From an uncultured Verrucomicrobiota bacterium (lineage in GTDB: Bacteria; Verrucomicrobiota; Kiritimatiellia; CAIQIC01; Lenti-01), in NCBI GenBank assembly GCA_937872095.1, contig CALMNW010000034.1, positions 20,107 through 84,106 of the forward strand: DNA of 64,000 nucleotides, read 5' to 3'. Made by a program: the position numbers and the translations under genes. Of this stretch, positions 40,617-59,724 are shown piece by piece (the first letter of the stretch is position 1; each line of letters opens with the position of its first letter). A model generated the notes under the pieces. The model did no database searches. It was not told the origin of the DNA and worked only from the letters and a program-made list of their open reading frames with translations.

Positions 40617-41306
40617 GTGCGGAGATGCGCGGGGGATTCCGCGACCTGCGGTCCGAAGGATGCCGGGCCTATGTTGAATTCCGATATGTCAGCGGAGTCG
40701 TCCAGCCTATCCGGTACAAAACCCATTTGGTTGTCCCGTGTTTCCGCTCCTTGCCGCGGGGAGAGCATGTGGGGGACCTTGGAGGAAGGGGATTGCCTTT
40801 GGGTGATTCCCGTTTTGTTCGATGCCCTGCAACCCGGCGACGTCGTGGCGTTCGAATTCGGGGGTAAAGTCGTCGCCCACCGGATCGTAGGCCGGGAAGG
40901 CAATGGGTTCGCGACGCAGGGAGATGGCAATGACAATCGGGATTCCACGCCGCTGACCGCCGAGCGACTGATCGGCAAAGTGGTGGCACGGGAACGCAAG
41001 GGCGTTCGCAAAGCCGTGATCGGTGGGAATCGCGGCCGGCAGCGGGCGCGGATCTTGCGGTCCATCTGCTGGATTCGCCACTCCTCCGCGTTCTGGACGG
41101 TGCGCTTGCTTCGCACGCTGCCCGTCCGCCACGTTGTTTCCTGGTTATGGCGGCCGGTCATCCTTTCCGTTGGCTTTATGTCGCCGCAGGGGGGAATCAC
41201 CAAGTTCATCCATCAGGGACGGACCGTGGCCATCTGGAATCCGCAATCGCGGCGCTGGAACTGCCGAATGCCCTACGATTTGATTATATCCCCGCCGGTC
41301 CAATGA
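40617..41306 (+). CDS. S26-family signal-peptidase-I-like protein (SipW/ER-type, S26B-like) lacking the usual N-terminal membrane anchor
   Basis: GESMWGTL (Ser box), VVAHRIVG (His box) and QGDGNDNRDSTPL (GDNN-type box) occur in the canonical S26B order and spacing. No hydrophobic segment precedes the Ser box. The start is uncertain (possible internal Met). Confidence 0.5.
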   Translation: MRRCAGDSATCGPKDAGPMLNSDMSAESSSLSGTKPIWLSRVSAPCRGESMWGTLEEGDCLWVIPVLFDALQPGDVVAFEFGGKVVAHRIVGREGNGFATQGDGNDNRDSTPLTAERLIGKVVARERKGVRKAVIGGNRGRQRARILRSICWIRHSSAFWTVRLLRTLPVRHVVSWLWRPVILSVGFMSPQGGITKFIHQGRTVAIWNPQSRRWNCRMPYDLIISPPVQ

Positions 41307-42544
41307 ATAGCGAACGCGCCACGGATTCCGGTTGCGAGATGGATTTGCTGTGCGATTGCATCGCGCCGAATCGATCCGCGTCGCTCAAGGGGGACCTGCT
41401 CCGCACGCGGTCGGTGGATTGGCCGCGGTTTTTCGCGCTGGCCACCAACCACCACGTGATCCCGTTGGTCTACCAAGCCTTGAAATCCATGGCGGACGGC
41501 GGAGCGGCCATTCCTCCCGAATGGCTGGCCCAGTTTCGAACGCGATATCTGTCCATTGCCGCGTACAACGTCCGGGCCATGGCCCTGCTGCACCGGCTCC
41601 AGCAACTCATGGAAGCGCAGGGCATCCGGCTCGTTCCCGTCAAAGGTCCTGCTTTGGCGATGTTGGCTTTTGGAGACGTCGCATCGCGGCAGTTCGAGGA
41701 TTTGGATCTCATCGTGCGTCGGGAAGACATGTTGCGCGCCGTTGCGGCACTGGAGCGGGACGGCTACGCGTTGCGAGAGCTCTCGATCACGGCCGACCGA
41801 AAACGCTATCTGGCCACGCTGCAGAACTGGTCGTTGGAAAAACCGGGAAAACCACCGCTGGATCTCAAGCCGGTTCTGATTTCCCATGCGCTGATCGGTC
41901 CGGAATCGGCGGACTACATGGCTTCCGCTTGCCGCCGGCTGCCGATCGACGACAAGCGCGTTCTTTGGGCGCCCGGTCCCGAAGCCATGTTGCTGGCGAC
42001 GTGCATGGATGGGGCGAACGAAATGTGGTTCAAGCTGTCGGCGGTGGCCGACGTGGCCGCATTGTTGGCGGCGCATGCGGATCGGGATTGGCACGGATTT
42101 CTCGCCGAAGCGGCGCGCTGGGGACAACGGAGAAGCCTGCTGGTCGGCGCTGGCGTGGCGGAAGAACTGCTCGGGTGCGACTTGCCCTCGGCGTTCCGGG
42201 AAGGGGATCGTCGCGATCCGGCGGCGCGGCGTCTGGCGCGGCAAGCGGCGGAACGCCTGCGGGCGCTGGCTCCCCGCCATGCGATCGTCGGCCGGCAAAC
42301 CTGGTTCGCGCTCCAAACCCGGGAACGGGCGCGCGACCGCTTGCGTTTTGGACAGCGCCTGCTGTTTGTTCCAGGCGCGTTTGAACTCGCGGCCTTGCCG
42401 TTGCCGGGCGTGCTCTATCCCGTGCATTCGCTGTTGCGTCCCTTCCGCTTGGCCTGGGACGTGCTTGTGCGGAAAGGCCGGCAGCGCCGGTTGACGATTC
42501 AGCCGACAGGTGGGAAATTGATGGGTAACGCGAAAGACGCATGA
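41303..42544 (+). CDS. Nucleotidyltransferase-family protein (resembles the 'uncharacterised nucleotidyltransferase' PF14907 family seen in RiPP/lasso-peptide clusters)
   Basis: ATGA overlap with the peptidase-like gene. Core IRLVPVKGPALAMLAFGDVASRQFEDLDLIVRREDMLRAVAALERDGY shows the K-G...R-x-x-x-D-L-D-L-[LI]-V...G-Y pattern of the family. Confidence 0.45.
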   Translation: MNSERATDSGCEMDLLCDCIAPNRSASLKGDLLRTRSVDWPRFFALATNHHVIPLVYQALKSMADGGAAIPPEWLAQFRTRYLSIAAYNVRAMALLHRLQQLMEAQGIRLVPVKGPALAMLAFGDVASRQFEDLDLIVRREDMLRAVAALERDGYALRELSITADRKRYLATLQNWSLEKPGKPPLDLKPVLISHALIGPESADYMASACRRLPIDDKRVLWAPGPEAMLLATCMDGANEMWFKLSAVADVAALLAAHADRDWHGFLAEAARWGQRRSLLVGAGVAEELLGCDLPSAFREGDRRDPAARRLARQAAERLRALAPRHAIVGRQTWFALQTRERARDRLRFGQRLLFVPGAFELAALPLPGVLYPVHSLLRPFRLAWDVLVRKGRQRRLTIQPTGGKLMGNAKDA

Positions 42545-44331
42545 AACCCGAGAACAAGCGATTGTTGCATCTGTGCCAGGCCGTCGGATTGGTCTGGGAG
42601 AGCGCGCGGGGCTGGACGTTGCTCCAAGGCGCGGCGGTCATGGCGCAAGGCTTGTTGCCCATCGCCACGCTCTATTTGACGCGGCGCGTGGTCGATGCCG
42701 TCGGCCAGTTTCTGGCGCAACCTGCGGGCCAGAAAGATCCCTTGCCGCTTTTTACGCTGTTGCCCTGGGTGGCGGGCGTGGCGGTGGCGGGCTGGATTTT
42801 CCGCGCGTGGTCGAACGTGGTGGCCGAGGCGCAGGCCGATGCGGTTTCGGACCACGTGCAGGGCGCGCTGCAGAAAAAATCCACCGAGATCGATATCGCC
42901 TATTACGAGACGTCGACCTACCACAACCAGATGCGCATGGCGCAATCGGAGGCCATGTCGCGGCCCGTGAGTATCGTTCGGAACCTGGCGCAATTGGGAA
43001 GCGGCGCGCTGGTGTTGGGATCGGTAACCGGCGTGTTGTGGCTGTCGCAGGGGTTTTTGCTGCCCGTATTGCTGGCGGCGGCGTTGCCTGGCGCCTTGGC
43101 GCGGGTCCGGAATTCCCGCCAATGGCATGGCTGGCGGGTTCGGCACAGCGAACCGGAGCGACAAGCCGGCTATTTGCACCTGTTGCTGACGTCGTTTCCG
43201 TTCGCGAAAGAAATCCGTCTGCTGGGAACCGGCGGTGAATTGCGCCGGCGGTTCGCGGCCTTGCGCGGCAGTCTTCGCCGGAGCCGATTGGGATTCGTGC
43301 GGCGGCGCGCCGGCACGGAGATCGTGGCCGACGTCGTTTCCGCCTGCGTCGTTCTCGTCGGCCTGGGGCTCATTTATCTGCGGATGGCGGGCAACCGGAT
43401 GACGCTGGGGGACTTGGCCTTGCTCTACGGTGGATTTCAAAAGGGCAAGACGGCCTTCTCGTCGGTCTTGGGCAGTTTGGCCGCGCTCTATGAAGATTCG
43501 CTGTTCATTTCCCATTTCTACGACTTTCTGGGGCTGCCGCAGCGGGTCCATTCGCCGGCCGTGCCCCGGCCGCTTCCGCAACGGATCGAGCAGGGAATTC
43601 GGTTGGAGCACGTCACCTTCCGGTATCCGGGCTGCGCGACGGATGCGCTGAAAGACGTCACGGCGGAAATCCGGGTGGGGGAACATGTGGCGCTGGTCGG
43701 AGAAAACGGATCCGGCAAGACGACGCTCGTGAAATTGCTGTGCCGCCTGTACGACCCCACCGAAGGCCGGGTTCTGCTGGATGGCATCGACATCCGCGAA
43801 TATGCGCTGGAGGATCTGCGCGGCCTGTTCAGCGTCCTGTTCCAGGATTTCGTCCGATATCAGATGACGGCCGAGGAAAACGTCCGCATGGGCCATCTGG
43901 CGGTCCCGCCGGGCGATCCGAGGATTGCCGAAGCCGTTCGCCGGGCCGGAGCCGTTCCCGTGATCGAGCGCTTGCCCCAGGGAAGCCAGACGCCGTTGGG
44001 GAGGCTTTTCAAGGACGGGATGGAACTGAGCGAAGGGCAGTGGCAACGGATGGCGTTGGCCCGGGCTTTCTTGCGGCCGGGACCCATTCTGATGCTGGAC
44101 GAGCCAACCAGTTCCCTGGATGCCAAGGCGGAGCGGGATCTGCTGGAGTCGGTCGCCGCCGGGTTCCAGGGGAAAACCGTCGTGGTGGTCAGCCATCGGC
44201 TTTCGACCGTCCGGATGGCCGATCGCATCTGGGTGTTGTCCGACGGGCGCTTGGTGGAGTCGGGCGGCCACGATGCGTTGGTGCGGGCCGGGGGCGACTA
44301 TGCCCGACTGTTCGCTTTGCGCGCAACATGA
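42541..44331 (+). CDS. ABC exporter, fused permease and ATP-binding protein (type I exporter; no N-terminal C39 peptidase domain)
   Basis: ATGA overlap. Six-helix TMD followed by Walker A GENGSGKTT, signature LSEGQWQRMALARA and Walker B ILMLDEPTSSLD. Confidence 0.85.
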   Translation: MKPENKRLLHLCQAVGLVWESARGWTLLQGAAVMAQGLLPIATLYLTRRVVDAVGQFLAQPAGQKDPLPLFTLLPWVAGVAVAGWIFRAWSNVVAEAQADAVSDHVQGALQKKSTEIDIAYYETSTYHNQMRMAQSEAMSRPVSIVRNLAQLGSGALVLGSVTGVLWLSQGFLLPVLLAAALPGALARVRNSRQWHGWRVRHSEPERQAGYLHLLLTSFPFAKEIRLLGTGGELRRRFAALRGSLRRSRLGFVRRRAGTEIVADVVSACVVLVGLGLIYLRMAGNRMTLGDLALLYGGFQKGKTAFSSVLGSLAALYEDSLFISHFYDFLGLPQRVHSPAVPRPLPQRIEQGIRLEHVTFRYPGCATDALKDVTAEIRVGEHVALVGENGSGKTTLVKLLCRLYDPTEGRVLLDGIDIREYALEDLRGLFSVLFQDFVRYQMTAEENVRMGHLAVPPGDPRIAEAVRRAGAVPVIERLPQGSQTPLGRLFKDGMELSEGQWQRMALARAFLRPGPILMLDEPTSSLDAKAERDLLESVAAGFQGKTVVVVSHRLSTVRMADRIWVLSDGRLVESGGHDALVRAGGDYARLFALRAT

Positions 44332-44347
44332 AGAGGTCCATTTGATT

Positions 44348-45748
44348 ATGGCCTCCAAACGCCATTTTAATGTGCCGCGGATTGACAGGCAACGGGGAAG
44401 GGTATCAAATGCCGTAATGCGCCCGGTTATACAAAAAGTGCGTAGAGCGGGGATTTATGCCCTTCTATGCTTTGCGGTTCCCGCTTTTGGGGGGCCGGGC
44501 AACGGCATCAACGTTGCCTCGTGGGTGCTGAGTCCCTATCTGGAGTTGAATCTGACCCATGATTCGAACGTCTACAAGGACGGCACGAACGTGATTTCCG
44601 ACGCCTTTTTCGAGCCGGAACTGGGGGTGAGGTTCAGTTCTTCGGCAGAAACCAACACCTTCCTGATCAAGGGCAATCTGTACGTGTCGGATCGGACCTA
44701 CGACACGGAAAGCAACCGCGATTTCATGACGTATGGGGATCACCTGACCTTGCAATTGGGGAACGGGCGCAAATCCCTGTTCGAATTGATCCAGAGCTAT
44801 CGCTTTTTGGACGACAACGACCGGCATGCGTCGGACGTCGAAACGTCCCGCCTTTCCGGCGAAATGGTGGAAGACAGCAACGCGCTGGATCTGGAGCGCG
44901 AACTGCACCAGTTGGGGGCTTCGCTTTCGCGCCGCATGTCGGACAAATTGCATCTGGCGCTGTCCTATCGTTATTCCGGCGTCCATTACCCGAACAAGAC
45001 CCACGAGCGTTTGGCCCGCAAGCAGGAAGAATACGTGCCGGAAGGATTGGATCTGGACGGGCACATCTGGCAATTGGAAGGCGCGCTGGGATTGACGGAT
45101 AAAACCGACGTCATGCTGACGCTGCGCCAGGGCTTGCAGTACCAGGAAAAAACGGATGAGCCCGCCGAACTGACGACGCTACGGCTGGGGTTGCAGACGC
45201 AAGGCGCCCAAAAACTGGTGTACCACGTCGGGGTCGGCTTGGAATACTATGCGCGCCCGTCCCAGACGCAGTTCGACGAGGCGGACGTCGACGAAAGCGA
45301 CGTCCAGGTCGATGAAGAGGGCGTCCGCAGCGACAACGACCAGATTACGTTCAACTACAATGCGGCGGCGGACTGGTTCATCACGGAAAAATTGACCTTC
45401 CGCATCGGCGGCTACAACGGCACGGAATTCTCCTCGTTCTACGAGCAAAACGGCATGGAATTCATCAGCGCTTGGGCCGGGGTGGGATACCGCTGGAAGC
45501 CCAGCTGGATCTTTTCCCTGCGCGGGATTTATCGCTACGACGACTATCTGGACCCGGTCACGCACGAAGGCATTACCTTGGATCGCAAGGACACGCGCGT
45601 CGAAGGCCATGGGCGCATCGACTACATCGCGTCGGGCAATTTCCTCCGGATCTATTTGGAGGCGGTCTACGACGAAGTGGATTCCAATTTCGACTTCGTG
45701 GATTATGTCGATGAGCGCCTCATCCTCGGCGCCCTCATCCAGTACTAG
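44348..45748 (+). CDS. Probable outer-membrane beta-barrel protein
   Basis: Alternating amphipathic beta-strand pattern throughout. C-terminal aromatic residue (...LILGALIQY). A signal-peptide-like segment MRPVIQKVRRAGIYALLCFAVPAFG begins at 44417 and may be the true start. A TTGACA-containing promoter-like stretch lies at ~44387. Confidence 0.5.
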   Translation: MASKRHFNVPRIDRQRGRVSNAVMRPVIQKVRRAGIYALLCFAVPAFGGPGNGINVASWVLSPYLELNLTHDSNVYKDGTNVISDAFFEPELGVRFSSSAETNTFLIKGNLYVSDRTYDTESNRDFMTYGDHLTLQLGNGRKSLFELIQSYRFLDDNDRHASDVETSRLSGEMVEDSNALDLERELHQLGASLSRRMSDKLHLALSYRYSGVHYPNKTHERLARKQEEYVPEGLDLDGHIWQLEGALGLTDKTDVMLTLRQGLQYQEKTDEPAELTTLRLGLQTQGAQKLVYHVGVGLEYYARPSQTQFDEADVDESDVQVDEEGVRSDNDQITFNYNAAADWFITEKLTFRIGGYNGTEFSSFYEQNGMEFISAWAGVGYRWKPSWIFSLRGIYRYDDYLDPVTHEGITLDRKDTRVEGHGRIDYIASGNFLRIYLEAVYDEVDSNFDFVDYVDERLILGALIQY

Positions 45749-45759
45749 GAGGCGAAAAC

Positions 45760-46320
45760 ATGAATGCAAATTGGATCAAATGGACGGCGCTGGCGGTTTG
45801 CCTGTCCGGCCTGAACGCACAGGCGGCATTCGATCGGCCGACGCGGGCGGAACTCAAGGCCGCGGCGGAGGATCTTTCGAAGGTGGTCGAATTGCTGCAG
45901 GATGCCTCGATCGACCAGGCGGCGGAAACCGCCAAGGACGTGGTGATCGAAATCGTCAAACTGGATCTGGACCGCGTCGAGCGCGACAGTCGGTCTTCGT
46001 CTCTGGTCGGATACCTGTTCATGACCGTGCAGCGAGACGACTGGAAAGCGTTGGCGATCTCGTTCGGCCGCATGGTGGCGGCCAGTCCGACGGCCAGCAT
46101 GGATCCCTCGTTGCTGTCGGCGCTTCAGCGCGCGATCATCGAGGTGTGCGGGGTGGAGGTCGCGAGCGAATTCGGGAATGCCTACAATCTAGCCATGTTG
46201 ACGATCGCCGGAGCGCCCGGCGGCGGCAAGAACGTGCCGCCCCAGCCGCCGCCGCCGCCCGTGGCGTTGCCGTTGCGTCCGCCCGTGGCGACGCTCTACG
46301 AAGGGCAGCAACTGCCGTAG
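45760..46320 (+). CDS. Secreted hypothetical protein with a Pro-rich C-terminus
   Basis: Signal peptide MNANWIKWTALAVCLSGLNAQA|AF. RBS aggagg 7 nt upstream. 186 aa. No recognisable domain. Confidence 0.45.
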   Translation: MNANWIKWTALAVCLSGLNAQAAFDRPTRAELKAAAEDLSKVVELLQDASIDQAAETAKDVVIEIVKLDLDRVERDSRSSSLVGYLFMTVQRDDWKALAISFGRMVAASPTASMDPSLLSALQRAIIEVCGVEVASEFGNAYNLAMLTIAGAPGGGKNVPPQPPPPPVALPLRPPVATLYEGQQLP

Positions 46321-46348
46321 CCGACGCAAGACCTTTCGCGGAACACTG

Positions 46349-46386
46349 AGCCCTTCGATCCAAACGGGACCGAAGGGCTTTTCGTT
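46349..46386 (+). terminator. Rho-independent terminator candidate closing the + strand operon
   Basis: Inverted repeat agcccttcg-(13 nt loop)-cgaagggct followed by tttcgtt, located 30 nt after the stop of the last operon gene. Confidence 0.4.
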
Positions 46387-46447
46387 GGAGCCCTCGGCCG
46401 GGCCGGAGGGCAGGTATGGGGGCGTCCCTGGTCGCAGGGAGGAAAAG

Positions 46448-46495
46448 TGGTGGCGGGAACCGGGGTCGAACCGGTGACCTAAGGCTTATGAGAAA
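46448..46495 (-). tRNA. 3' fragment of a tRNA (or tmRNA) gene: T-arm, acceptor 3' strand and CCA only; probable att-site remnant at a mobile-element boundary
   Basis: Reverse complement reads ...AGGTC ACCGG TTCGACC CCGGT TCCCGCC A CCA: variable loop, perfect 5-bp T-stem with a TTCGACC loop, a 7-nt acceptor strand, the discriminator and CCA. The complementary 5' acceptor strand GGCGGGA and a paired anticodon stem are absent. The upstream sequence switches abruptly to AT-rich DNA. Confidence 0.5.
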
Positions 46496-46622
46496 TCATT
46501 CCGAATACATATATCTAATTGCATTATATGATATAATGACATAATACTTATTCATACTTGACACCTACTTGACACTCCCAGCCCACTCTGTCAGAGTGCC
46601 ATAAGAAGCCAACGGGAGTCAG

Positions 46623-48065
46623 ATGATGGTCACAAAGCGCCGTATCACTAGCAAGATCAAACAGCTGCGGGCGGAGCGATACATGGGCTGGTCTATCCGC
46701 AAGATGAAGATACTGGATAGTGGCATCGTTTTTTGGCAGTCGGACAACAACCTTCGCCCACCGCATCGGGAGCGAATGAGCTGGGAAGACATTGGCCAAG
46801 CCAAGGCCCATATCCAAGCGATGTCCACAGCGGTTAAAAACGAAGGGCGGGGTGCCTATGCCCTGACGCATGCTCAGAAAATCGAAGCTAAAGCGGCCAT
46901 AGATAAGCTCGGGGACAAGGTGAAGTTCGCGGACCTCCTGGCTTTCTGGGAACAGCATCATTCAGATGGCAAGTCTATAACCTTGGCCGAGATGCTAAGG
47001 GGATGGTTGGCCGAGGCGCAAGAAGATGGGCTAAAGCCTACGAGCATACGGCAGAACAAGCAGCGGCTTAACGCATTCATTGGGGAGGTCGGCGAAGAAA
47101 CGCCCTGCGCACTAGTAACCGGCGAAGTGGTAGAAGGATTTCTCGGCCAGCGCCCGTGCGGTAAGCCTACAAAAATTAGCTGGCGGAAAACGCTACATGC
47201 TTTCTTTGAATACTGCATCGAAAAGCAGGCCGTGTCCAGCAACCCCATCATCAAGTCACGCCGGGGGCGCCGGAGGCGCAAGAGAATCGAAGCCGCCACA
47301 AAGATTCCCGAGTTCATGCCGGTCAAGACGGTTAACAATTTCATGGCGAAGGCTGAAGAGCTTCATCCTGAGAGCGTACCTGCATTGGCGATCATGTTTT
47401 TTGCCGGCCTCAGGCCCTTCGAGGTGTCAGCGCAGTATGGTCTAGAAACTTCCGAACTGACCAGTGCTAGAGACACAACGGCGGCGGCGAACAAACGGCT
47501 GAAGAATGCAAAACCCGGAAGTCAGGCTGAGCGCGCAGCCAGGATCGCAGTAGATGATGCACGGCAAAAACTCAAAGCGTTGATGGAATCTAGTAGAAAG
47601 AAGAGAGGAAAAGCTCCGGCGACAATGGGTGGACTGGACTGGACTAATGTCAACCTTGCAAAGAAGTTCATACGTGTCCTACCGGAGACATCAAAAACAG
47701 GTGCGGGGCGTCTGGTTGACATCAGCAATAACCTCCTCCTGTGGCTTACGAAGTACTACAGGGCTTGCGGACCAGTCGCTCCATCACCGGTAACACTTAT
47801 TCGTCATAGACGGGACATCATGAAGAAAGCTGGCATCAAGAAGTGGCTCCCAGATGTGGCGCGGCACTCCTATGCAACCTATCATTTCGCCATGTACGAA
47901 AACCAGGACAAGCTGCAAGCGCAGATGGGGCACTCCGGAAAGGCCTACATCTTGACTGAGCACTACAAAGGTTTGACGACGAAGGAAGAGGCCGAGGAGT
48001 ATTGGAACATCAACCCGGCAAATCCGTCGGGCGGGGTCATACAACTTGCCACGAAGGGGGCATAG
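46623..48065 (+). CDS. int: Tyrosine-type site-specific recombinase/integrase
   Basis: The C-terminal catalytic region has the family order ...LRPFE (Arg box)...ARHSYATYHFAMYEN (His/Arg box)...HSGKAYILTEHYKG (Tyr nucleophile region). The N-terminal SAM-like core-binding domain is ~150 aa. Confidence 0.8.
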   Translation: MMVTKRRITSKIKQLRAERYMGWSIRKMKILDSGIVFWQSDNNLRPPHRERMSWEDIGQAKAHIQAMSTAVKNEGRGAYALTHAQKIEAKAAIDKLGDKVKFADLLAFWEQHHSDGKSITLAEMLRGWLAEAQEDGLKPTSIRQNKQRLNAFIGEVGEETPCALVTGEVVEGFLGQRPCGKPTKISWRKTLHAFFEYCIEKQAVSSNPIIKSRRGRRRRKRIEAATKIPEFMPVKTVNNFMAKAEELHPESVPALAIMFFAGLRPFEVSAQYGLETSELTSARDTTAAANKRLKNAKPGSQAERAARIAVDDARQKLKALMESSRKKRGKAPATMGGLDWTNVNLAKKFIRVLPETSKTGAGRLVDISNNLLLWLTKYYRACGPVAPSPVTLIRHRRDIMKKAGIKKWLPDVARHSYATYHFAMYENQDKLQAQMGHSGKAYILTEHYKGLTTKEEAEEYWNINPANPSGGVIQLATKGA

Positions 48066-48068
48066 GAC

Positions 48069-49001
48069 ATGCCCCCTCAAACGAGCAAACCGAAGCGGGC
48101 CGAGATTTTCATCGGCGGCACAGGGATGCTGCCCGTCATGCATTTCGCGCATGGAGCGCCAGTGTCTGTTGGTGCCGATAATGAGATTGGTATAACGATA
48201 GAAACTCCCACACACAGATACACACTGCACCGGATGCTTACGTATGAGGATCAGAGATTGTTTCCCATATGGACAGAAACAAGCTGTTTCGAGAAGTTTC
48301 AGGTCAGGGTGTTATGCGGGGCTGAATTTGACCCTGAATTGGGTCTATGTCATTGGGACACTCAATATCCACCCTCGACCGAAAACATGTGTGCAGTCAA
48401 ATGGGGGGATGATTCATGGCTAGCCCTGCCTGTAAACACAGAGGAATTGCCATTGGATGCACGCCTTGCGCATTTCAAGACGCTTGCCAATGAAAACTGC
48501 TGTGGCCCCCAGGTAGAGGCGATCCGTACGAGAACATATAGTCTGTATTTCGACAAACAAAAAGAAGCATGGAATGATTTTCGGGCGAGGTCTGGTTCTG
48601 AACACGAATCGCTGAAGGCCGAACTTGCATGCCTAGCACGCGATGCAAAGCTCATGGCGACACCTCCCGAAAGGCAGAAATGGTGGGAAAACCTTATTAG
48701 GGCATACAGGCGAACGAATACAAATACTGCGAAAACGCAAAGGTGGCAGGAAGTCGCACGAATCGTTCTAAAAGGCGTTCAAGTAAACATGGATAACCCG
48801 AAGGTAAAAAAGACGGACTACCTAAGCCCACCCATGTACAAGCATATCGTTCGTGATTTCCGAAAGGAAAAAAATCTCTTGAGCTCGAACAGTGGCGATC
48901 CATCAGAATACGAAAAACAACTGGCGAACAATTTGCGGATATATGCGAACCGAGAAGCCCGAAAACAGGGAATGACGGTAGAAGGTACCCTTAAAGAATA
49001 G
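48069..49001 (+). CDS. Hypothetical protein (element cargo; no recognisable domain)
   Basis: 310-aa ORF starting 4 nt after the int stop, ~50% GC, lysine-rich C-terminus. Confidence 0.45.
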   Translation: MPPQTSKPKRAEIFIGGTGMLPVMHFAHGAPVSVGADNEIGITIETPTHRYTLHRMLTYEDQRLFPIWTETSCFEKFQVRVLCGAEFDPELGLCHWDTQYPPSTENMCAVKWGDDSWLALPVNTEELPLDARLAHFKTLANENCCGPQVEAIRTRTYSLYFDKQKEAWNDFRARSGSEHESLKAELACLARDAKLMATPPERQKWWENLIRAYRRTNTNTAKTQRWQEVARIVLKGVQVNMDNPKVKKTDYLSPPMYKHIVRDFRKEKNLLSSNSGDPSEYEKQLANNLRIYANREARKQGMTVEGTLKE

Positions 49002-49260: not shown

Positions 49261-49470
49261 ATGACTACGAAGGAAACGGCGACGACGAGACTGAATGGAT
49301 GGACGCGGATCGGCGGGGTGCTGGAGCAGGTTCCGGTGAGCAAGCGGACACTTCTGCGTTGGCAGGCGCAAGGTCGAATCCCGGTTACAAAAGTAGGGCG
49401 CGTGACCCTGTACCGGCTGTCCGACATCGAGAAGATGTTGAGCAAGTTGACCGTCCGGGCCATTGGATAA
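49261..49470 (+). CDS. AlpA/excisionase-family helix-turn-helix DNA-binding protein
   Basis: 69 aa. LEQVPVSKRTLLRWQAQGRIPVTKVGRVTLYRLSDIEKML matches the HTH_17/excisionase pattern (...RTLyRwi..G.lP..k.G.r..yr..dl...l). A GGA-rich RBS lies 8 nt upstream. Confidence 0.6.
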   Translation: MTTKETATTRLNGWTRIGGVLEQVPVSKRTLLRWQAQGRIPVTKVGRVTLYRLSDIEKMLSKLTVRAIG

Positions 49471-49629
49471 GGAGGCGACCATGCGCAAGCTCAACAAAAC
49501 GGCCACCACCGTGTCACCGATGGCGGCCAGCAAGATCAACAAATCGGTGTATAGCACGGCGCCGGCGAGTTGCTCAAGCAAATCCGCCACAATGACGATA
49601 TCCGCGGCGGCGGAAGAGGGGAGGCAGAT

Positions 49630-52149
49630 GTGAGCCTAAACCGTTCCCTGCTCGAGAACGTGAAGACCGCCAACGGCAAAACCACTGCGCGCTGCCCGGC
49701 TTGCAAGGAGAGCGGTTGCGACGAGGGCGGCGATCACCTGGTGATATATCCGGACGGCCGGTACGGATGCGCCGTGAATCCTGGCGACAAAGTACACACT
49801 AAGCGGATCTTCGAACTGGTGGGCGCTAACAACGAGCCGTCAGCGCAGCACCCCGGTCGAAAGAGCGGCATGGTGTATTCAACCATCGAAGCAGCTACAT
49901 CTGCGGCGCGACGGTTCGTGGAAAAGAAAACCGAAGAATCATGGAAGTGGATCCGGACCGATGTATACAGGAGCGCGACAGGCGAACCTGTGGCCGCCGT
50001 CCTGCGCTTCGATCGTGCAGACGGGGCAACCGAGGATAACGGAAAACCCATCAAGACATATAGGCCGGTTCACGTGGTTGACGGTGGCTGGCAGTTGGGA
50101 GATCCCCCGGGCTTGCTGCCGCTGTTCAACCTGCCGGCGATCGTCAATTCCGACGGCATCATTCATATCAACGAGGGCGAGAAGGCTGCCATGGCGGGCA
50201 CGGCGCTTGGCCTGACTTCCACCACCTCCATGCACGGCGCCAAGTCGGCGGCCAAGACCGACTACGCTCCGCTGAAAGATCGAGACGTGGTGATTCACCC
50301 GGACAACGACCGAAAAGGCCGCGAGTACGCTGAAGATGTGGCGGCCCGCGCATATGCCGCCGGGGCCGCATCCGTCAAGATCGTCGTCTTGCCCGGTCTA
50401 CCGCCCAAGGGCGACATGGCCGACTACGTAGCCGCAAGGACGGGAATGGGGATGGAATCCGTACGGGCGGAAGTTGTGGCAGTGGCCGATGCGACGGAAG
50501 TGTGGTCTCCGGCCAAGGCGGCCGCCGCTGGTGTAAAACCGACGATCGTTCTTCCCGGCGGCCCACGAACCATCACGGCTGCCGGAGAGGACTTGGGCCG
50601 ACTGTTGGCATCTACTCAAAAGGTCTTCATCCGGGGCGGTGCTCTTGTCACATTAGATGCGGACGGGGATGGGCATCCAATCCTGCGCCAGCTCAAGCCG
50701 GTGGCGTTGGCATCGGTCTTTGAGTCGGTGGCCACCTTGGCGAAAATGACTCAAGGTAGCTTACAACCAGCCATCTGCACCGAGTCAGCGGCCAACTTGA
50801 TCGGGTCATCGGCCGCATTTCGTGATCAAATGCCGTCAATCCGTATTATAACGCGGTGTCCGGTGTTGATTGAGCGCAATGGCAAGTTGCTCCAAATCAC
50901 GGGCTACGACTTGGCGTCTGGCATCATGGCTGGTGGCTGTCCCGTTCCGGATATGACGCTGACCGAGGCCAAGGAGCGGCTCTACGAGCTGCTGCGCGAC
51001 TTCCGGTTCGCCACTCCCGCAGACCGGGCACGCGCTCTAGCGGCACTGATAACGCCGGCAATGGTTTTCGGAGGATTGTTGAAAGGACGGCCACCCATCG
51101 ATCTTGGTGAGGCTGACGATTCGCAGGCAGGGAAGGGGTTTCGGAATAAGATCAAATCCCGCGTATACGGCGAGACAATGCGCTGCATCGCCCAGAAACG
51201 CGACGGAGGGGTGGGCAGCTTGGAGGAGTCGTTCAACGCGGCATTGATTCAAGGGGCGGTGTTCATATGCCTTGAGAATGTTCGCGGCAAGATAGACTCG
51301 CCCGCGATAGAATCGTTCATCACCGAGGATCACTATACGGCCAGATGCGCCTATCACGAGAACGTCGACATCGATCCGCGCCGGGTTTGCTTGTCCATGA
51401 CGTCCAACAAAGCGGACCTGACCACCGATCTGGCGAACCGTTGTGCGTGCGTGAGGATACTCAAACAACCGCAGGGCTACGCGTACGCCCGATATCCAGA
51501 GGGTGACATCCTAGACCACGTGGCGGCGTACCAGGGCCGGTACCTTGGCGCCGTGTTTGCCGTGATCCGGGCTTGGCATGCTGCAGGTTGTTCGCGCACG
51601 GACGAATGTCGCCACGACTTTCGGGCGTGGGCACAGACCATGGATTGGATCGTTCAAAACCTTATGGATGCCGGGCCGTTATTGGACGGCCACCGGGAGA
51701 CTCAGCGGCGGATGACCAATCCGTCCATGAATTGGCTGCGCGACGTAGCGCTTGCTGTCGTCCGTGCTCAGCGGACCGACGAGGGGCTGCGGGCGGGACA
51801 TCTCGTCGACCTACTGGCCGAGGCGGGCGTCGATGTGCCGGGCCTTCCAGAAGGTGGGGATCCGTCAGAACCCAACAACCGGAAGTCGGCACAGCAGGCC
51901 GTTGGCCGCAAGCTGTGGCAATGTTTCCGGAACGAAGATGTGGTGGCGATCGACAGCTTTACCATACGCCGCCAGACCACATACAACCAACAGCACCGAT
52001 CTGAGACCAACGAGTATTGGTTTTCTGCAGCAGGCAATGGGGACGGCGATGGTCCTATAGTCGCAGGGCCCCCAGATTTAACCAAAGAAACCGCCCCGGT
52101 ACTGCTGGTATCGCTTGGGCTTCGGCCCCCAGACGCCAACTGCGGCTAA
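49630..52149 (+). CDS. Bifunctional DNA primase/helicase-like replication protein (Zn-finger, TOPRIM-like, then phage/plasmid P4/D5-type helicase region)
   Basis: GTG at 49630 with a strong RBS gaggggagg 5 nt upstream; the track's alternative start is at 49570. Zn-binding CPACKESGCDEGGDHLVIYPDGRYGC. TOPRIM-like acidic motifs IHINEGEKAAMAGT...VVIHPDNDRKGREYA. A C-terminal ~450-aa region resembles primase-associated D5_N/helicase domains. Confidence 0.6.
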   Translation: MSLNRSLLENVKTANGKTTARCPACKESGCDEGGDHLVIYPDGRYGCAVNPGDKVHTKRIFELVGANNEPSAQHPGRKSGMVYSTIEAATSAARRFVEKKTEESWKWIRTDVYRSATGEPVAAVLRFDRADGATEDNGKPIKTYRPVHVVDGGWQLGDPPGLLPLFNLPAIVNSDGIIHINEGEKAAMAGTALGLTSTTSMHGAKSAAKTDYAPLKDRDVVIHPDNDRKGREYAEDVAARAYAAGAASVKIVVLPGLPPKGDMADYVAARTGMGMESVRAEVVAVADATEVWSPAKAAAAGVKPTIVLPGGPRTITAAGEDLGRLLASTQKVFIRGGALVTLDADGDGHPILRQLKPVALASVFESVATLAKMTQGSLQPAICTESAANLIGSSAAFRDQMPSIRIITRCPVLIERNGKLLQITGYDLASGIMAGGCPVPDMTLTEAKERLYELLRDFRFATPADRARALAALITPAMVFGGLLKGRPPIDLGEADDSQAGKGFRNKIKSRVYGETMRCIAQKRDGGVGSLEESFNAALIQGAVFICLENVRGKIDSPAIESFITEDHYTARCAYHENVDIDPRRVCLSMTSNKADLTTDLANRCACVRILKQPQGYAYARYPEGDILDHVAAYQGRYLGAVFAVIRAWHAAGCSRTDECRHDFRAWAQTMDWIVQNLMDAGPLLDGHRETQRRMTNPSMNWLRDVALAVVRAQRTDEGLRAGHLVDLLAEAGVDVPGLPEGGDPSEPNNRKSAQQAVGRKLWQCFRNEDVVAIDSFTIRRQTTYNQQHRSETNEYWFSAAGNGDGDGPIVAGPPDLTKETAPVLLVSLGLRPPDANCG

Positions 52150-52225: not shown

Positions 52226-53066
52226 GGTCCCCTATAGCGGATAATACAGGTTGAAAACATGAATGCTCACGCATTGAATTACTCAATGCTATGTCTACTA
52301 TTATCTTCTATGGGGGGTATTAGCCGCATAGCCGCAGAAGGCCGGAGCTCAAGCCGGCAGAACGCCTGCTGTGCCGGTACCGCAGATTGCCCATGTGGGC
52401 GAACAGCCCGCGGACGAAAATGGGGTGACGAAGTAGATCGGCAGCTATTGGGTTCGTTCCATAGTGGTGTTGGTGCCTCGCCGACGAAAAAACGCATGTG
52501 ATGTTGGTGCCCCGTCGGCTCGGATTTTGCCGGGTCGGCCGGCCTTTATATCGGGGCGAAAACAGGTGGATCGGCGGGTGTTTTCGGGGGCACCCCCAGA
52601 AGGTGTGTCCCCGGTGGGGAACGGTCGCAATGTATTCGAGCGCTTTGGCGTTGCCGAACTTCGAGGGGAGGACGTTTCTACGGCGATGACCGTCGTATCG
52701 TCTTTTCGCCGAGGTGGATGCACGGCCATGTTGCCGAATGTATTCCAAAAAATTCCTAGAGGCGCCCCGGGGCATAGAGATAGATAACAAGCGATTAACG
52801 CGGAAAAAATAAGCACGATTTCGGCGTCGGGCCCCTAACTAAAGCATGGAACGCGTTCCACAACTGAATATCGCCGCCCGGGAGCGGCATATTAATAGGG
52901 TGCGGTAACTGTCCGCTCGACGCCGACTTTCCCGCCGTACCCTGCCGCCTTCCCGGCGGTCAAATCCCACCCCCAAAACCCCGGAGCCACAATGTACTTT
53001 TTCATCCTGATAGCGTTTCTGTTTTTACTTCTGCGCTTTGGCAGTTGGTAGCCAGGAGGAAAACTG

Positions 53067-53639
53067 ATGAAATCCTTCAACATCTTCCTGACCATCGTTG
53101 TACTCACCGTCGGAGCCGCTCTAGCCGTCTATCTCGCCGGCTGCCACAAGCAGGTAGTCCGTGCCGTCACTATTTCCGTTATGAAGCAAATTCCTCAAGC
53201 ATGGTTGATCCTGCAGACCGACGAAGAACTGACTGTCGCGACCATCGACGGCGGAAATCTCCTTTTCGGTCCCCGGTCCGGAATGGCATCGGCCGTTCGA
53301 AGATCGCATTGGGGACTCAACCTGGAACTGATCGTCGACGAGGACATCGTGGTCTCAGGACGCGAGGTACGCATCAAGCTGCCGGATCCAGCAGTCTTCG
53401 ACACGGTGGTCGACATGTCCACATTCCGCTATTTGACGCGTCGCAGTGGTTTCCACGCTTTGGGTGACGTTTTATGGGGTCGGTCGTTGTTCAGTGAATT
53501 GGCCGAGATCGCCTGCCAGACGCCGCCCAAGTACAGCCGGGAGCAGATCCAGGCACGGCGGTCGGACTTCATCCTACGACTGAACGAGCAGGCGGCATCG
53601 CTGTTCGCGGCGAAAGATCTGGTTGTTCGATTCGAGTAG
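53067..53639 (+). CDS. Hypothetical protein with an N-terminal signal/anchor helix
   Basis: RBS aggagg 9 nt upstream. MKSFNIFLTIVVLTVGAALAVYLAGC resembles a signal peptide or lipobox (LAGC). 190 aa. Confidence 0.45.
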   Translation: MKSFNIFLTIVVLTVGAALAVYLAGCHKQVVRAVTISVMKQIPQAWLILQTDEELTVATIDGGNLLFGPRSGMASAVRRSHWGLNLELIVDEDIVVSGREVRIKLPDPAVFDTVVDMSTFRYLTRRSGFHALGDVLWGRSLFSELAEIACQTPPKYSREQIQARRSDFILRLNEQAASLFAAKDLVVRFE

Positions 53640-53835
53640 GCGGTAACCATGCCTCAATCGTTTCGATACCCGTGGCCAAGTTCCGCGATCGATCCCGGCT
53701 TGATGCGACGGTTGTACCTGGCGCGCGAAAGCTCGCCTACGCCCACGACCATCACCCGACTCATTGCCGAAGCCGTGCGCGCCGCCTATGGCCAGTCCAA
53801 TCCCCAACCTGAAACCCAACCACCCAAGGAGTCCA

Positions 53836-55659: not shown

Positions 55660-56163
55660 TTGAAACAAAACGAACAGGAGAATGAATCCATGAGCGTGAA
55701 TCTTGAAATGTCCTACGCGAAAAAAGTTGGGTTGCCCGAATACTCGAGCCACAATTTCAGCGTCTCGCTGAAGACCGAGGTGGCCCGCCTCGAAGACGTG
55801 TCCGGCGAAGTCGAACGGGTCTACCGGCTTCTTCAGACGGCGGTGGACGAGCAAATCGTCAACCCCGGCTTTGTCCCCGGCCACGAGCAGTCGGCACCCG
55901 CACCCAAGAACGGTGTCGACGACAGCAAGCCCTGGAAGTGCTCGGACAAGCAGAAGGCGCTGATCCTCAAGGTCGTCGCCGAGAACAAGCTCGACCGCGT
56001 CGAAGTGGAGCAACTGGCCGTCACCCGGTTCGGGCACGGCGTCGCCCTGCTTAACAAGCTGGAGGCTTCGGGGCTCATCGACGAGTTGCTGGGCAAAACC
56101 GGTCGCTCGTCGGCGAAGAAGGCCGGCGCCTTCCGCCCCTTCGAGCAGCGGAGGGCGGCGTGA
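55660..56163 (+). CDS. Hypothetical protein (167 aa)
   Basis: ORF with an acidic N-terminus. An alternative ATG at 55690 has a better RBS (caggagaatgaatcc). Confidence 0.4.
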   Translation: MKQNEQENESMSVNLEMSYAKKVGLPEYSSHNFSVSLKTEVARLEDVSGEVERVYRLLQTAVDEQIVNPGFVPGHEQSAPAPKNGVDDSKPWKCSDKQKALILKVVAENKLDRVEVEQLAVTRFGHGVALLNKLEASGLIDELLGKTGRSSAKKAGAFRPFEQRRAA

Positions 56164-59415: not shown

Positions 59416-59724
59416 ATGAGCCTAGTTGCCGTGCCCGACAAAGAAACCAGTCTAGCTCCTGAACCAGCCGAGTGGCCGATAGACGGCACGCTCGACCTGC
59501 ACCTGTTTCAGGCTAAAGATGTAGGCGATCTGATGCCGGGGTATCTGGCCGAGTGCCGCAAGCGGGGCATTCTGCAGGTCCGGATCGTGCACGGCAAGGG
59601 GACGGGACAGCTGCGGGAACGGGTGCACGCCGTCCTGCGGAAGCTGCCGGAGGTGGCTGGGTTTGGCATGGCGACGGAAGCGATGAGAGGGTGGGGGGCG
59701 ACGGTGGTGGAGATGAAACCTTGA
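59416..59724 (+). CDS. Smr (small MutS-related) domain protein
   Basis: LDLHLFQAKDVGDLMPGYLAECRKRGILQVRIVHGKGTGQLRERVHAVLRKLPEV matches the Smr pattern (LDLHG...eA...l..fl.....g...vriIhGkGtG.Lr..v...L). Confidence 0.6.
   Translation: MSLVAVPDKETSLAPEPAEWPIDGTLDLHLFQAKDVGDLMPGYLAECRKRGILQVRIVHGKGTGQLRERVHAVLRKLPEVAGFGMATEAMRGWGATVVEMKP

Follow-up and report, generated by a model that had tools for sequence, protein, structure and literature searches.

A probable integrase-side junction of an integrative element in a tRNA-Met(CAU) gene of a Kiritimatiellia-like bacterium

Introduction

In the 64-kb stretch of DNA analyzed here (hereafter the window), the 3′ part of a tRNA on the minus strand abuts AT-rich DNA, which is followed by a duplicated sequence containing TTGACA and by a tyrosine integrase gene. 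This raises the question of whether the locus is the edge of a mobile element that entered a tRNA gene, as an earlier note on this DNA had suggested, and what part the duplicated sequence plays in it. Comparison with related loci indicates that positions 46448–46622 are very probably the integrase-side junction of an element in tRNA-Met(CAU) of a Kiritimatiellia-like bacterium of the PVC superphylum, a judgment that extends to the whole account given below, including the conditional steps of arm-site binding, bending, and autoregulation. The features of the locus are summarized in Table 1.

Table 1. Features of the element junction and the adjoining DNA (window coordinates).
Feature	Position	Strand	Basis and remarks
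Chromosomal flank downstream of the tRNA: 186-aa gene, terminator-like hairpin, and spacer	45760–46447	+	Collinearity with L012 and L022; 65% GC
Displaced 3′ fragment of tRNA-Met(CAU), core repeat of the fragment-side att junction	46448–46492	−	45/45 identity; unique in the window
Anticodon loop CTCATAA (tRNA positions 32–38), putative strand-exchange (overlap) region	46486–46492	−	Identity breakpoints
Spacer between core and arm pair, possible bending region	46493–46554		21% GC; palindrome ATTATAT-G-ATATAAT at 46523–46537
Tandem pair TACTTGACAC-C-TACTTGACAC, period 11, candidate arm-type integrase sites of the int-proximal arm	46555–46575	+	Shuffles; relatives
Putative integrase promoter: −35 TTGACA (46569–46574), 17-nt spacer, weak −10 CAGAGT (46592–46597)	46569–46597	+	Hexamer spacing in relatives
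Tyrosine integrase, 480 aa	46623–48065	+	Pfam PF00589, PHROG, and fold; Shine-Dalgarno GGGAG at 46614–46618
310-aa gene	48069–49001	+	3 nt after int; no Pfam or PHROG match
Excisionase-like HTH_17 protein, 69 aa, candidate recombination directionality factor	49261–49470	+	Pfam; PHROG
Primase/helicase (Toprim and VapE-like domain), replication module	49570–52149	+	PHROG DNA primase/helicase (1.6e-19); weak Pfam Toprim_2 and VapE-like
Element DNA common to L172, minimum proven extent	52944–54536	+	78% nucleotide identity to L172:19782–21372, in a different chromosomal context

Results

A displaced tRNA-Met fragment

Read on the minus strand, the sequence at 46448–46492 is CTCATAAGCCTTAGGTCACCGGTTCGACCCCGGTTCCCGCCACCA, which is identical at 45 of 45 positions to positions 32–76 of the 76-nt tRNA-Met(CAT/CAU). 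Using ARAGORN, we found this tRNA intact in 21 of 26 related Kiritimatiellia/Verrucomicrobiota genome loci. The 45-mer occurs once in the window and in none of 100 shuffles. It runs from the anticodon loop CTCATAA through the 3′ anticodon-stem strand, the variable loop, the T arm, and the 3′ acceptor strand to CCA; nothing is present of the 5′ acceptor strand, the D arm, or the 5′ anticodon-stem strand. The earlier description of a 3′ part without a detectable intact gene therefore stands, except that the part is slightly larger than was described and also takes in the anticodon loop, the 3′ anticodon-stem strand, and the variable loop. No tRNA or tmRNA gene was called by ARAGORN in the 64-kb window, and Rfam gave no tRNA match in 45500–47500 even at E ≤ 10, which favors a displaced att half-site over an intact gene at this position. 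A second copy of the 45-mer (with up to three mismatches) or a tRNA 5′ half was likewise not found within the window. The tRNA(CAU) appears to be either elongator Met or Ile2(CAU); an initiator identity was considered and rejected, because G1 pairs with C72.

The identity with the tRNA begins exactly at C32 in the window as well as in L007, L025, L027, L033, L035, L036, and L172, and at A28 in L022. In L038, the sole uninterrupted identity between its two junctions is CGGTTTCCTAAACCG, corresponding to positions 28–42. From these breakpoints we infer strand exchange within the anticodon stem-loop, with CTCATAA or adjoining sequence as the overlap, and likewise the exact cleavage points. The proposal of integration into the 3′ end of a tRNA gene is borne out by the displaced fragment, although the crossover would lie in the anticodon stem-loop and not at the extreme 3′ end. 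The symmetry of core-type inverted repeats around the anticodon loop is weak (A-A-G-x-C in some elements), and none was found in the window.

Chromosomal flank and empty site

The GC content is 65% in 46300–46447 and in everything to the left of it, and only 21% in 46493–46554. The drop described in the earlier note is real, and the value of ~35% GC given there understated the contrast. The left flank comprises the 186-aa gene (45760–46320) and, as read from the sequence, a terminator-like hairpin formed by GCCCTTCG (46350–46357) and CGAAGGGC (46371–46378), followed by TTTTCGTT. A strict consensus promoter and terminator scan of 46250–46750 made no calls; it passed over the hairpin because the loop is 13 nt.

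Two related loci are collinear with this flank, L012 with window positions 41189–46315 at 76% and L022 with 40741–46321 at 72%, and both matches extend to the same tRNA. In L012 the syntenic site has an intact tRNA-Met directly followed by a 5′-flank gene that is conserved in the class. Since the same left-flank genes here adjoin an intact tRNA-Met with the element absent, L012 is an empty site, and the junction of the window is not found as uninterrupted chromosomal DNA in this relative. The 5′-flank gene is conserved beside tRNA-Met in at least 14 loci, and no homologue of it was found within the window. The same site has been occupied independently in L022, where a fragment, AT-rich DNA, and an integrase of 31% identity are present; the regenerated tRNA of that genome is on L010 and adjoins the conserved 5′-flank gene. 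A displaced fragment was seen in at least 3 of the 26 species-representative loci. Judged by these sequences, the tRNA-Met gene shows itself as a recurrent integration hot spot.

Complete and partial relatives of the element

Five relatives of the element are complete (L033, 6.2 kb; L035, 5.6 kb; L036, 6.8 kb; L038, ~6.3 kb; L042, ~7.6 kb), and all five have the same layout, in which ~130 nt separate a displaced fragment from a divergent integrase gene, after which come element DNA and, at the far end, a regenerated tRNA. The same 45-mer is present at both ends of L033, L035, and L036, while the target is a tRNA-Arg in L038 and a tRNA-Val in L042. The distance from the core to the start codon is 130–137 nt in nine of 11 elements and 147 and 162 nt in the other two. 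An intact gene at the far end, which had been predicted from the junction, is thus present in all five complete relatives; within the window, whose far end is not reached, there is none. Together with the 45/45 match and the empty site, this common layout supports the reading of the fragment as an att half-site displaced by integration into a tRNA gene.

The closest relative is L172, in which the module of fragment, int, ORF2, and xis is 96.5% identical to that of the window and lies beside a different chromosomal flank, a sign of mobility. The end of the element is not reached within >11 kb of L172, and element DNA is shared with the window up to position 54536. In addition, a 95%-identical integrase was found on 22 contigs, and all six of the six contigs listed break inside the tRNA repeat. 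Contigs L028 and L031 give a hint of reads that span attP.

These comparisons show that the ancestral site consisted of the left-flank genes, tRNA-Met on the minus strand, and the conserved 5′-flank gene. The element brings its own copy of tRNA positions 32–76 together with a terminator hairpin, and recombination joined the chromosomal 5′ part to this 3′ copy, giving a working tRNA at the far end and leaving the original 3′ part behind as the 45-nt fragment at 46448–46492.

The integrase

The integrase gene, for which the public gene call starts at ATG 46626 and gives 479 aa, matches Pfam Phage_integrase PF00589 with 27.8 bits (cut-off 27.1) and PHROG integrase families at 1.4e-19. These matches, the fold, and the catalytic residues corroborate the earlier assignment to the tyrosine integrases. 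Four residues, R264, K358, R414, and Y448, do not vary among 32 homologues, and H437 hardly does; the HxxR box is a variant in which D411, invariant in the 32 sequences, takes the place of the first His. A helical insertion of ~65 aa separates Arg-I from the β-hairpin Lys. The AlphaFold model (pLDDT 84) has a two-domain fold of core-binding and catalytic domains, and Foldseek matched it to XerA (2e-06), lambda Int (2.5e-05), IntI, and Tn1549 Int; full-length lambda Int (1z1b_A) aligned over 445 columns with ~12% identity.

The model also contains an N-terminal domain of four strands plus a helix (residues 12–79), which is predicted with confidence and conserved, G22, R26, D41, and R49 being invariant or nearly so in the 32 homologues. 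Searched alone against solved structures, this domain gave no significant match (best PUR-alpha, E = 0.46), and no match to the Pfam Arm-DNA-bind or DUF4102/P4-type arm-binding domains was found in 32 family members. Its proposed role in arm binding therefore rests on position and analogy. In total, 62 integrase homologues were found, two of them labelled only "integrase" and one "hypothetical protein", and the family is an unannotated one whose host lineage is Kiritimatiellia. Searches of IMG/VR and GenBank phages returned only distant integrases, at most 36% identical, with uninformative upstream regions.

Other element genes and extent of the element

The 310-aa gene is probably co-transcribed with int, as judged from their spacing. 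It is 99.7% identical in L172 and 90% identical in L027, and a gene of 200–320 aa is located directly after int also in L036, L038, L040, and L042. The 69-aa protein encoded at 49261–49470, which would direct excision, matches Pfam HTH_17 with 29.2 bits (cut-off 27) and a PHROG excisionase. Homologues are found in L027, L172, L033, L038, L040, L035, and L042, with identities of 67–72% in L033 and L038 and 36–45% in L035, L040, and L042. The replication gene varies between elements, being Toprim/VapE-like in the window, DUF5906 in L027, DUF3987 in L035, DnaB/AAA_25 in L038, and PriCT_2 in L040.

The stretch common to L172 includes a DUF4230-like gene (53067–53639) and the first part of a gene for a DnaN-like clamp (53764–55248), and the window copy also has genes for a PD-(D/E)XK nuclease and DUF932. 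The element has a minimum length of 8 kb; if intact, it would exceed 17.5 kb, given that no far end is reached before position 64000. From ~59999 onward, a large Peptidase_C1/lectin/Calx-beta protein is encoded that resembles host cargo.

Tandem pairs on both arms

The two copies of TACTTGACAC are located at 46555–46564 and 46566–46575, and the pair ends 47 nt before ATG 46623. A perfect tandem 10-mer pair appeared in only 3 of 5000 dinucleotide shuffles of the 133-nt arm. The direct repeat that had been noticed about 50 nt before int is accordingly real, but its unit is a 10-mer and the coordinates given for it (46553–46574) were off by 2–3 nt. In 10 of 11 related elements the pair begins at +60 to +67 from the core, after a spacer of similar length, with a period of 11 (12 in L040); the pair of L025 was read by eye after the automated search gave none. 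The AT-rich spacer itself might be a bending region, either intrinsically or through an IHF/HU-like factor.

A matching pair on the far arm was identified in the seven elements with both arms visible (L033, L035, L036, L038, L042, L022/L010, and L025/L024). Its distance from the tRNA 3′ end is 106–109 nt in four complete elements and a little more in L042; neither a gene nor a −10 follows these pairs. The positions flanking the hexamer agree at 8.9 of 10 between the arms of the same element versus 3.1 of 10 between elements, a co-variation of near and far pairs that was equaled in 1 of 5040 permutations. No second arm pair was found within the window, where the int-proximal pair at 46555–46575 is the one visible. 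The motif of the window, ACTTGACAC, recurs on a far arm from a metagenome (L083), with an intact tRNA-Met at a distance of 108 nt. Scanning metagenomes for ACTTGACACNNACTTGACAC gave at least 119 loci, of which only ~7, L083 being one, show a connection to an integrase homologue or a tRNA and the remainder are unrelated or simple 11-mer arrays. The motif alone is thus not diagnostic, because it is frequent in metagenomes away from any nearby integrase or tRNA. Found as TACTTGACAC pairs on both arms, it has the pattern of arm-type integrase sites, for which the pairs are candidates.

The −35 TTGACA at 46569–46574 lies inside the int-proximal copy, and the relatives have −10-like hexamers at the same 17-nt spacing (TATACT, TATGCT, TATGGT, TAGGGT, TATTCT, TACATT, and TAAGGT). 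TTGACA is also the −35 consensus of the host and occurs upstream of tRNA-Met genes, so part of its conservation may be promoter-driven. The earlier note had offered an arm-type or regulatory site and overlapping −35 boxes as alternatives; the far-arm pairs and the 17-nt spacing to the −10 favor both at once, and the duplicated TTGACA is probably an integrase docking site as well as part of the integrase promoter.

The integrase would then be heterobivalent. [quoted passage not shown] Bending of the 21%-GC spacer would let arm and core be bridged. With the −35 hexamer of the integrase gene falling inside the proximal arm site, integrase bound there would shut off its own gene.

Discussion

Alternative explanations

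The function of the tandem pairs can be explained in other ways. They may bind the HTH_17 excisionase-like protein or another regulator of the element, with the integrase acting at the core only or at other arm sites, an explanation that we regard as unlikely. The excisionases known to us act on one arm only; here there are pairs on either arm, each at a set distance from the core, as would suit bridging by the integrase. The conserved N-terminal β-sheet/helix domain of the integrase (G22, R26, D41, and R49) speaks against an excisionase site as well, as does a TTGACA core that is constant even where the xis homologues are only 36–45% identical (67–72% in L033 and L038). Against this must be set the conservation of the HTH_17 gene in the family, an integrase N-domain with no significant match to solved arm-binding domains, and the precedent of directionality factors, whose usual targets are tandem direct repeats within att arms and near −35 boxes, such as the TorI sites of KplE1 (PMC2951348). 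That the 9-mers are merely two overlapping −35 boxes of the integrase gene, not bound by integrase, is improbable in our view. This would agree with the −10-like hexamer that is spaced 17 nt from the proximal copy throughout the relatives, with TTGACA being the host −35 consensus present upstream of tRNA-Met genes, and with conservation of the hexamer even between integrases that are only 30% identical. It agrees poorly with the matching far-arm pairs and their distance from the tRNA 3′ end, with the co-variation of the hexamer flanks between the arms of the same element, and with a distal copy that is kept at the 11-bp phase without a −10 partner. We therefore prefer a pair bound by integrase and used by its promoter.

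Other alternatives concern the junction as a whole. The window copy could be a decayed remnant, its far end lost or separated by rearrangement and the junction a fossil, and there is rather little probability in this either. The 17.5 kb to the right hold no partner repeat, arm pair, or tRNA, complete relatives measure only 5.6–7.6 kb, and a protein resembling host cargo is encoded from ~59999 onward; yet the integrase reading frame is intact with its catalytic residues kept, the fragment is a perfect 45-mer, L172 also runs >11 kb without an end while sharing element DNA up to 54536, and up to 21.8 kb of further sequence remain on the 85,788-nt source contig. That the tRNA-like stretch is a coincidental match or a pseudo-tRNA with no link to integration has nothing in its favor beyond the lack of a tRNA call, and we reject it as having next to no likelihood, given a 45/45 match with none expected by chance, the syntenic intact tRNA in L012, and the same C32 breakpoint in several independent elements. 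The preferred explanation remains an element junction in tRNA-Met(CAU).

Implications

The element is an unannotated representative of a well-known class of tRNA-gene insertions, and its junction is of the textbook type. The tRNA-integration paradigm being already established, there would be a conceptual addition only if the coincidence of −35 and arm site proves functional. What is gained is one precisely mapped mobile-element boundary in the poorly studied Kiritimatiellia, a defined, unannotated integrase family with 62 homologues, and a full attP anatomy inferred from the complete relatives. The int-attP module is ~1.7 kb, with core, spacer, and arm sites delimited, and could serve as a starting point for integrative vectors in Kiritimatiellia and Verrucomicrobiota.

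The attP scaffold has the order pair, ~106 nt, 45-nt core, 62 nt, pair, promoter, and int. A bolder idea, advanced here tentatively and with more doubt than belief, is that the host sigma-70 −35 sequence TTGACA itself serves this integrase family as its arm-type site, in 11-bp-phased pairs on both arms that are read by the N-terminal 4-strand/helix domain. Integrase and RNA polymerase would then compete for one stretch of DNA, directly coupling int expression to intasome assembly, and the fixed scaffold would be retargeted among tRNA-Met, -Arg, and -Val. If true, this would be a compact, reprogrammable integration module for bacteria currently without genetic tools.

Comparison with known systems

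The element resembles the anticodon-centred tDNA islands and prophages (Reiter 1989; Williams 2002; Islander, PMC4383910), in which a tyrosine integrase splits a tRNA gene by crossover in the anticodon stem-loop, the 3′ copy of the element regenerates the gene, and the displaced 3′ fragment marks the other end. In Islander, island ends are marked by the regenerated tDNA and the displaced fragment, and the anticodon-centred class numbers 2083 islands (PMC4383910). Here, the displaced fragment, an integrase gene inside, and an empty site in a relative were found, along with a regenerated far-end tRNA in the five complete relatives. A difference is that int here adjoins the displaced fragment and points away from it, with the intact tRNA at the opposite end; in the count of integrase genes beside intact tRNA genes by Panis et al., divergent and same-direction-upstream arrangements together make up <8%.

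The order of int, a small gene, an HTH_17/AlpA-like excisionase, and a primase/helicase recalls P4-like satellites and integrative plasmids, a likeness by module order only. Such satellites and plasmids are small primase-carrying integrative elements with this module order. Unlike P4, the integrase has no match to the DUF4102/P4-type arm-binding domain, and the window copy is larger, with additional clamp, PD-(D/E)XK nuclease, and DUF932 genes. The closest integrase matches among 50,697 phage records came from the Akkermansia temperate phages Chantilly, Chambord, and Moulinsart, whose hosts belong to the same superphylum. Their C-terminal catalytic regions are 30–35% identical, with 29% of the query covered in the phage records, and residues 1–87 of the window integrase were unmatched in the Akkermansia phage and IMG/VR matches.

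As in lambda Int (PDB 1z1b, 1z1g, 5j0n), the predicted model has an N-terminal β-sheet/helix domain followed by helical core-binding and catalytic domains. The attachment site is also lambda-like, to go by the sequence, with an attP of ~260 bp, direct-repeat sites on both arms, an AT-rich spacer, and an Xis-like gene. The integrase differs from lambda Int in its ~12% identity, in a four-stranded N-domain with no significant match to solved arm-binding domains, in the ~65-aa helical insertion between Arg-I and the β-hairpin Lys, and in having Asp for the first His of HxxR. The arm motif, unlike that of lambda, is based on TTGACA, with two pairs of candidate sites at an 11-bp phase.

The closest parallel to the proposed arrangement of promoter and arm site is IntS/TorI of KplE1 (CPS-53), where the integrase promoter is embedded in an att arm and binding sites coincide with the −35 and −10 (Panis et al. 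2010, PMC2951348). The KplE1 overlap is located at attL beside the intact tRNA, with P′ sites that have a TAAA motif and P′1 overlapping the −10 (PMC2951348), whereas here the candidate site is the −35 hexamer itself and is located at the fragment-side junction. Integrase promoters overlapping att arm sites are negatively autoregulated, as found for KplE1 IntS (PMC2951348), and the putative integrase promoter inside the att arm would, as in KplE1, predict self-repression of the integrase also in this element.

Insertion into a tRNA-Met gene

The region had earlier been read as a mobile-element boundary, with a 3' tRNA fragment, AT-rich DNA, a duplicated TTGACA 9-mer and a tyrosine integrase, and as a whole this finding is correct and well explained. 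The features are summarized in the table.

Features of the element and its surroundings in the window
Feature	Position	Strand	Remarks
4292-aa ORF	27242-40120	+	single ORF
Genes for NTP_transf_5, ABC transporter and beta-barrel porin	41147-45748		downstream of the 4292-aa ORF
tRNA fragment (45-mer)	46448-46492	-	CTCATAAGCCTTAGGTCACCGGTTCGACCCCGGTTCCCGCCACCA, read from the window sequence
AT-rich spacer	46493-46554		21% GC
Palindrome	46523-46537		ATTATAT-G-ATATAAT, perfect
Tandem repeat	46555-46564, 46566-46575		unit TACTTGACAC, period 11
int	46623-48065	+	480 aa
Predicted helical insertion in the integrase	47450-47605		residues ~277-327
Gene after int (ORF2)	48069-49001	+	310 aa, 3 nt after int, without family match
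HTH_17 excisionase-like gene (xis)	49261-49470		
Primase/helicase	49570-52149		
DnaN-like sliding clamp	53764-55248		494 aa
PD-(D/E)XK nuclease (exonuclease)	56160-57011		
DUF932 gene	57310-58044		
Smr-domain protein	59416-59724		
Large ORF	~59999 to beyond 64000	+	runs past the window end

The 45-mer is present in a single copy in the window and absent from shuffles. ARAGORN predicted no tRNA or tmRNA gene in the whole 64 kb and an Rfam search of 45500-47500 returned no tRNA, even at E<=10; no intact tRNA is thus detectable at this position. Scanning one genome per species with the first 42 nt of the 45-mer returned 26 loci, the titles of which nearly all name Kiritimatiellia, Verrucomicrobiota or Lentisphaerae (one is an uncultured bacterium). 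The match corresponds to positions 32-73 of a 76-nt tRNA-Met(CAT) in 21 of them, the complete gene being GGCGGGATAGCTCAGTTGGCAGAGCGGAGGA followed by the 45-mer. The fragment comprises not only the T arm, 3' acceptor strand and CCA to which the earlier note had confined it, but also the anticodon loop, the 3' anticodon-stem strand and the variable loop; positions 1-31 are missing. An initiator tRNA was ruled out because G1 pairs with C72. Judged by sequence, the tRNA is an elongator Met or Ile2(CAU), which are indistinguishable from these data. AT-rich DNA does adjoin the fragment, at 21% GC rather than the ~35% first given, compared with 65% for the flank and all DNA leftward. The palindrome in this spacer carries TATAAT on both strands; the spacers of relatives are AT-rich and lack it.

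A related genome lacking the insertion was found in L012, a Verrucomicrobia MAG (UBA2281). We interpret L012 as the unoccupied site because it is collinear with window 41189-46315 (76% nucleotide identity), carries an intact tRNA-Met at the place corresponding to the fragment, and continues past the tRNA 5' end into a 326-aa gene that has no homologue in the window. At least 14 further loci have this gene beside the same tRNA. L022, from a different MAG, is collinear with window 40741-46321 (72%), and its junction consists of the fragment only, then AT-rich DNA, then an integrase 31% identical to that of the window, while contig L010 of the same MAG carries the regenerated tRNA and the conserved 5'-flank gene. 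As displaced fragments were also found in L007 and L025, the tRNA-Met gene is a recurrent integration target.

Five complete elements were recovered on contigs carrying integrase homologues: L033 (integrase identity 62%, 6.2 kb), L035 (53%, 5.6 kb) and L036 (50%, 6.8 kb), all targeting tRNA-Met, L038 (40%, ~6.3 kb) targeting tRNA-Arg(CCT), and L042 (30%, ~7.6 kb) targeting tRNA-Val(CAC). All five share one order: chromosomal flank, displaced 3' fragment (-), ~130 nt, int (+), a small gene, an HTH_17 gene, a replication gene, intact tRNA (-) and chromosome. This bears out the model in which the half-site is displaced and the intact gene stands at the opposite end. Directly after the CCA of the regenerated tRNA lies an element-supplied hairpin, AAACCCCTG...CAGGGGTTT.

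In the Met-targeting elements, identity between both junctions begins exactly at C32 and extends to CCA plus 0-2 nt. In L038, uninterrupted identity is limited to CGGTTTCCTAAACCG, tRNA positions 28-42; a comparison of L038:9780-9850 with L038:16033-16109 shows six differences between the displaced host fragment and the regenerated tRNA-Arg(CCT), all 3' of position 42. The regenerated tRNA is a chimera whose 3' half is element-derived, with compensatory T-stem changes and a G-U in place of G-C at pair 27-43. Together these limits place strand exchange in the anticodon stem-loop, at exact cleavage points that we infer.

Integrase

The presence of a tyrosine integrase beside the junction was supported by matches of int to Pfam (27.8 bits, cut-off 27.1) and to PHROG integrase (1.4e-19). 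Its 62 database homologues bear no informative names (two are labelled 'integrase', one 'hypothetical protein'). Across 32 aligned homologues, residues R264, K358, R414 and Y448 do not vary and H437 hardly does; the first His of HxxR is replaced by an invariant Asp411. The AlphaFold model (pLDDT 84) predicts an N-terminal four-strand-plus-helix domain (residues 12-79), a helical core-binding domain and a catalytic domain, with a two-helix insertion of ~65 residues between Arg-I and the beta-hairpin Lys. This insertion accounts for the weak Pfam score; the homologues P0043-P0045 lack it, and P0028 and P0030 have a short form. Foldseek matched the model to XerA, full-length lambda Int (445 aligned columns), IntI and Tn1549 Int. 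Modelled by itself, the N-domain is predicted confidently (residues 11-70 at pLDDT ~90). Since it has no significant solved-structure relative (best PUR-alpha, E=0.46) and no integrase family member matches the Pfam arm-binding families, we infer its candidate arm-binding role from position, conservation and the arm repeats. Among phages, the nearest integrases belong to Akkermansia phages, with 30-35% identity in the C-terminal third; IMG/VR relatives reach 36% identity at most.

Tandem TTGACA pairs

The tandem duplication, previously described as a 9-mer at 46553-46574, is real, although its true unit is TACTTGACAC. The pair ends 47 nt upstream of the int ATG, and when the near arm, the int side of the core, was shuffled 5000 times, a comparable pair arose just 3 times. 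Arms were compared in 11 related elements (integrases 30-96% identical, three tRNA targets). The core-to-ATG distance is 130-137 nt in nine of these and 147 and 162 nt in the other two, and a tandem pair on (T)TGACA begins at +60 to +67 in 10 of 11, with a period of 11 (12 in one); the pair of L025 was overlooked by the automated search and found by eye. Most informative is the far arm, beyond the regenerated tRNA 3' end: all seven elements with both arms visible carry a matching pair there in the same orientation. Its distance from that 3' end is 106-109 nt in four of the complete elements and somewhat larger in L042. In the metagenomic far arm L083, ACTTGACAC-tt-ACTTGACAC and an intact tRNA-Met are 108 nt apart. 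Outside the hexamers, near and far arm are the same at 8.9 of 10 positions within an element, compared with 3.1 between elements, a level equalled in only 1 of 5040 permutations. This pattern is as expected for predicted arm-type sites of a heterobivalent integrase. ACTTGACACNNACTTGACAC also occurs in at least 119 metagenome loci and nine viral contigs from many environments (L044-L171, metagenome and IMG/VR), often as 3-6 copies or long 11-mer arrays (L073, L074, L091); only ~7 of these loci have an integrase homologue or tRNA nearby.

A -10-like hexamer follows the int-proximal TTGACA at a distance of 17 nt; in relatives it is TATACT, TATGCT, TATGGT, TAGGGT, TATTCT, TACATT or TAAGGT. In the window it is only CAGAGT, which a strict promoter scan rejected. 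Far-arm pairs have no -10 and no gene downstream. The far-arm pairs and the spacing to -10-like hexamers in relatives suggest that the alternatives of the earlier note, an arm-type or regulatory site and overlapping -35 elements, are probably both true, the TTGACA pair serving as both together.

Element content and mobility

A gene of 200-320 aa fills the post-int position in most relatives, its sequence being kept only in the closest (L172 99.7%, L027 90%). In L172, the fragment-int-ORF2-xis block is 96.5% identical and stands beside a different chromosomal flank, which indicates that this module was recently mobile. Window 52944-54536 is also common to L172 (78%), and the element thus extends to at least 54536. 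No virion genes were seen in the 17.5 kb of it that are visible. The window holds no second 45-mer, tRNA 5' half or second arm pair; if intact, the element is >17.5 kb. The large ORF at the window end matches database protein P0063 (1662 aa) with 100% identity; this protein lies on an NCBI/ENA contig of 85,788 nt, evidently the source of the window. The ORF encodes Peptidase_C1, Lectin_like and Big_12 domains together with two Calx-beta domains and is either element cargo or chromosome.

An integrase 95% identical to that of the window is carried by 22 contigs, and all six listed begin within the tRNA repeat; two of the six start with GGGTTTGAAG, a match to the far-arm hairpin end of relatives. 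In the two metagenome contigs concerned, L028 (1-35) and L031 (1-33), the tRNA 3' end is immediately preceded by (GG)GTTTGAAG, which matches the far-arm hairpin end (L036: GGGGTTTGAAG) and not a chromosomal flank. These starts may stem from reads of an excised attP circle or from a tandem copy.

Comparison with known systems

On sequence grounds, the element is a standard tRNA-integrated element of a family whose attP architecture is lambda-like. Four features are unusual, not unprecedented: int adjoins the displaced fragment and not the intact tRNA (compare the shape statistics for integrase genes next to intact tRNA genes); the predicted arm site and the -35 consensus coincide; a long helical insertion is modelled within the catalytic domain; and the modelled N-domain is without a recognisable solved relative. 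With its crossover in the anticodon stem-loop, the element falls into the anticodon-centred class that the Islander scheme defines, which comprises 2083 islands (PMC4383910). An arm site overlapping the -35 element predicts that int would repress itself, for which IntS of KplE1 provides a precedent shown by test (PMC2951348).
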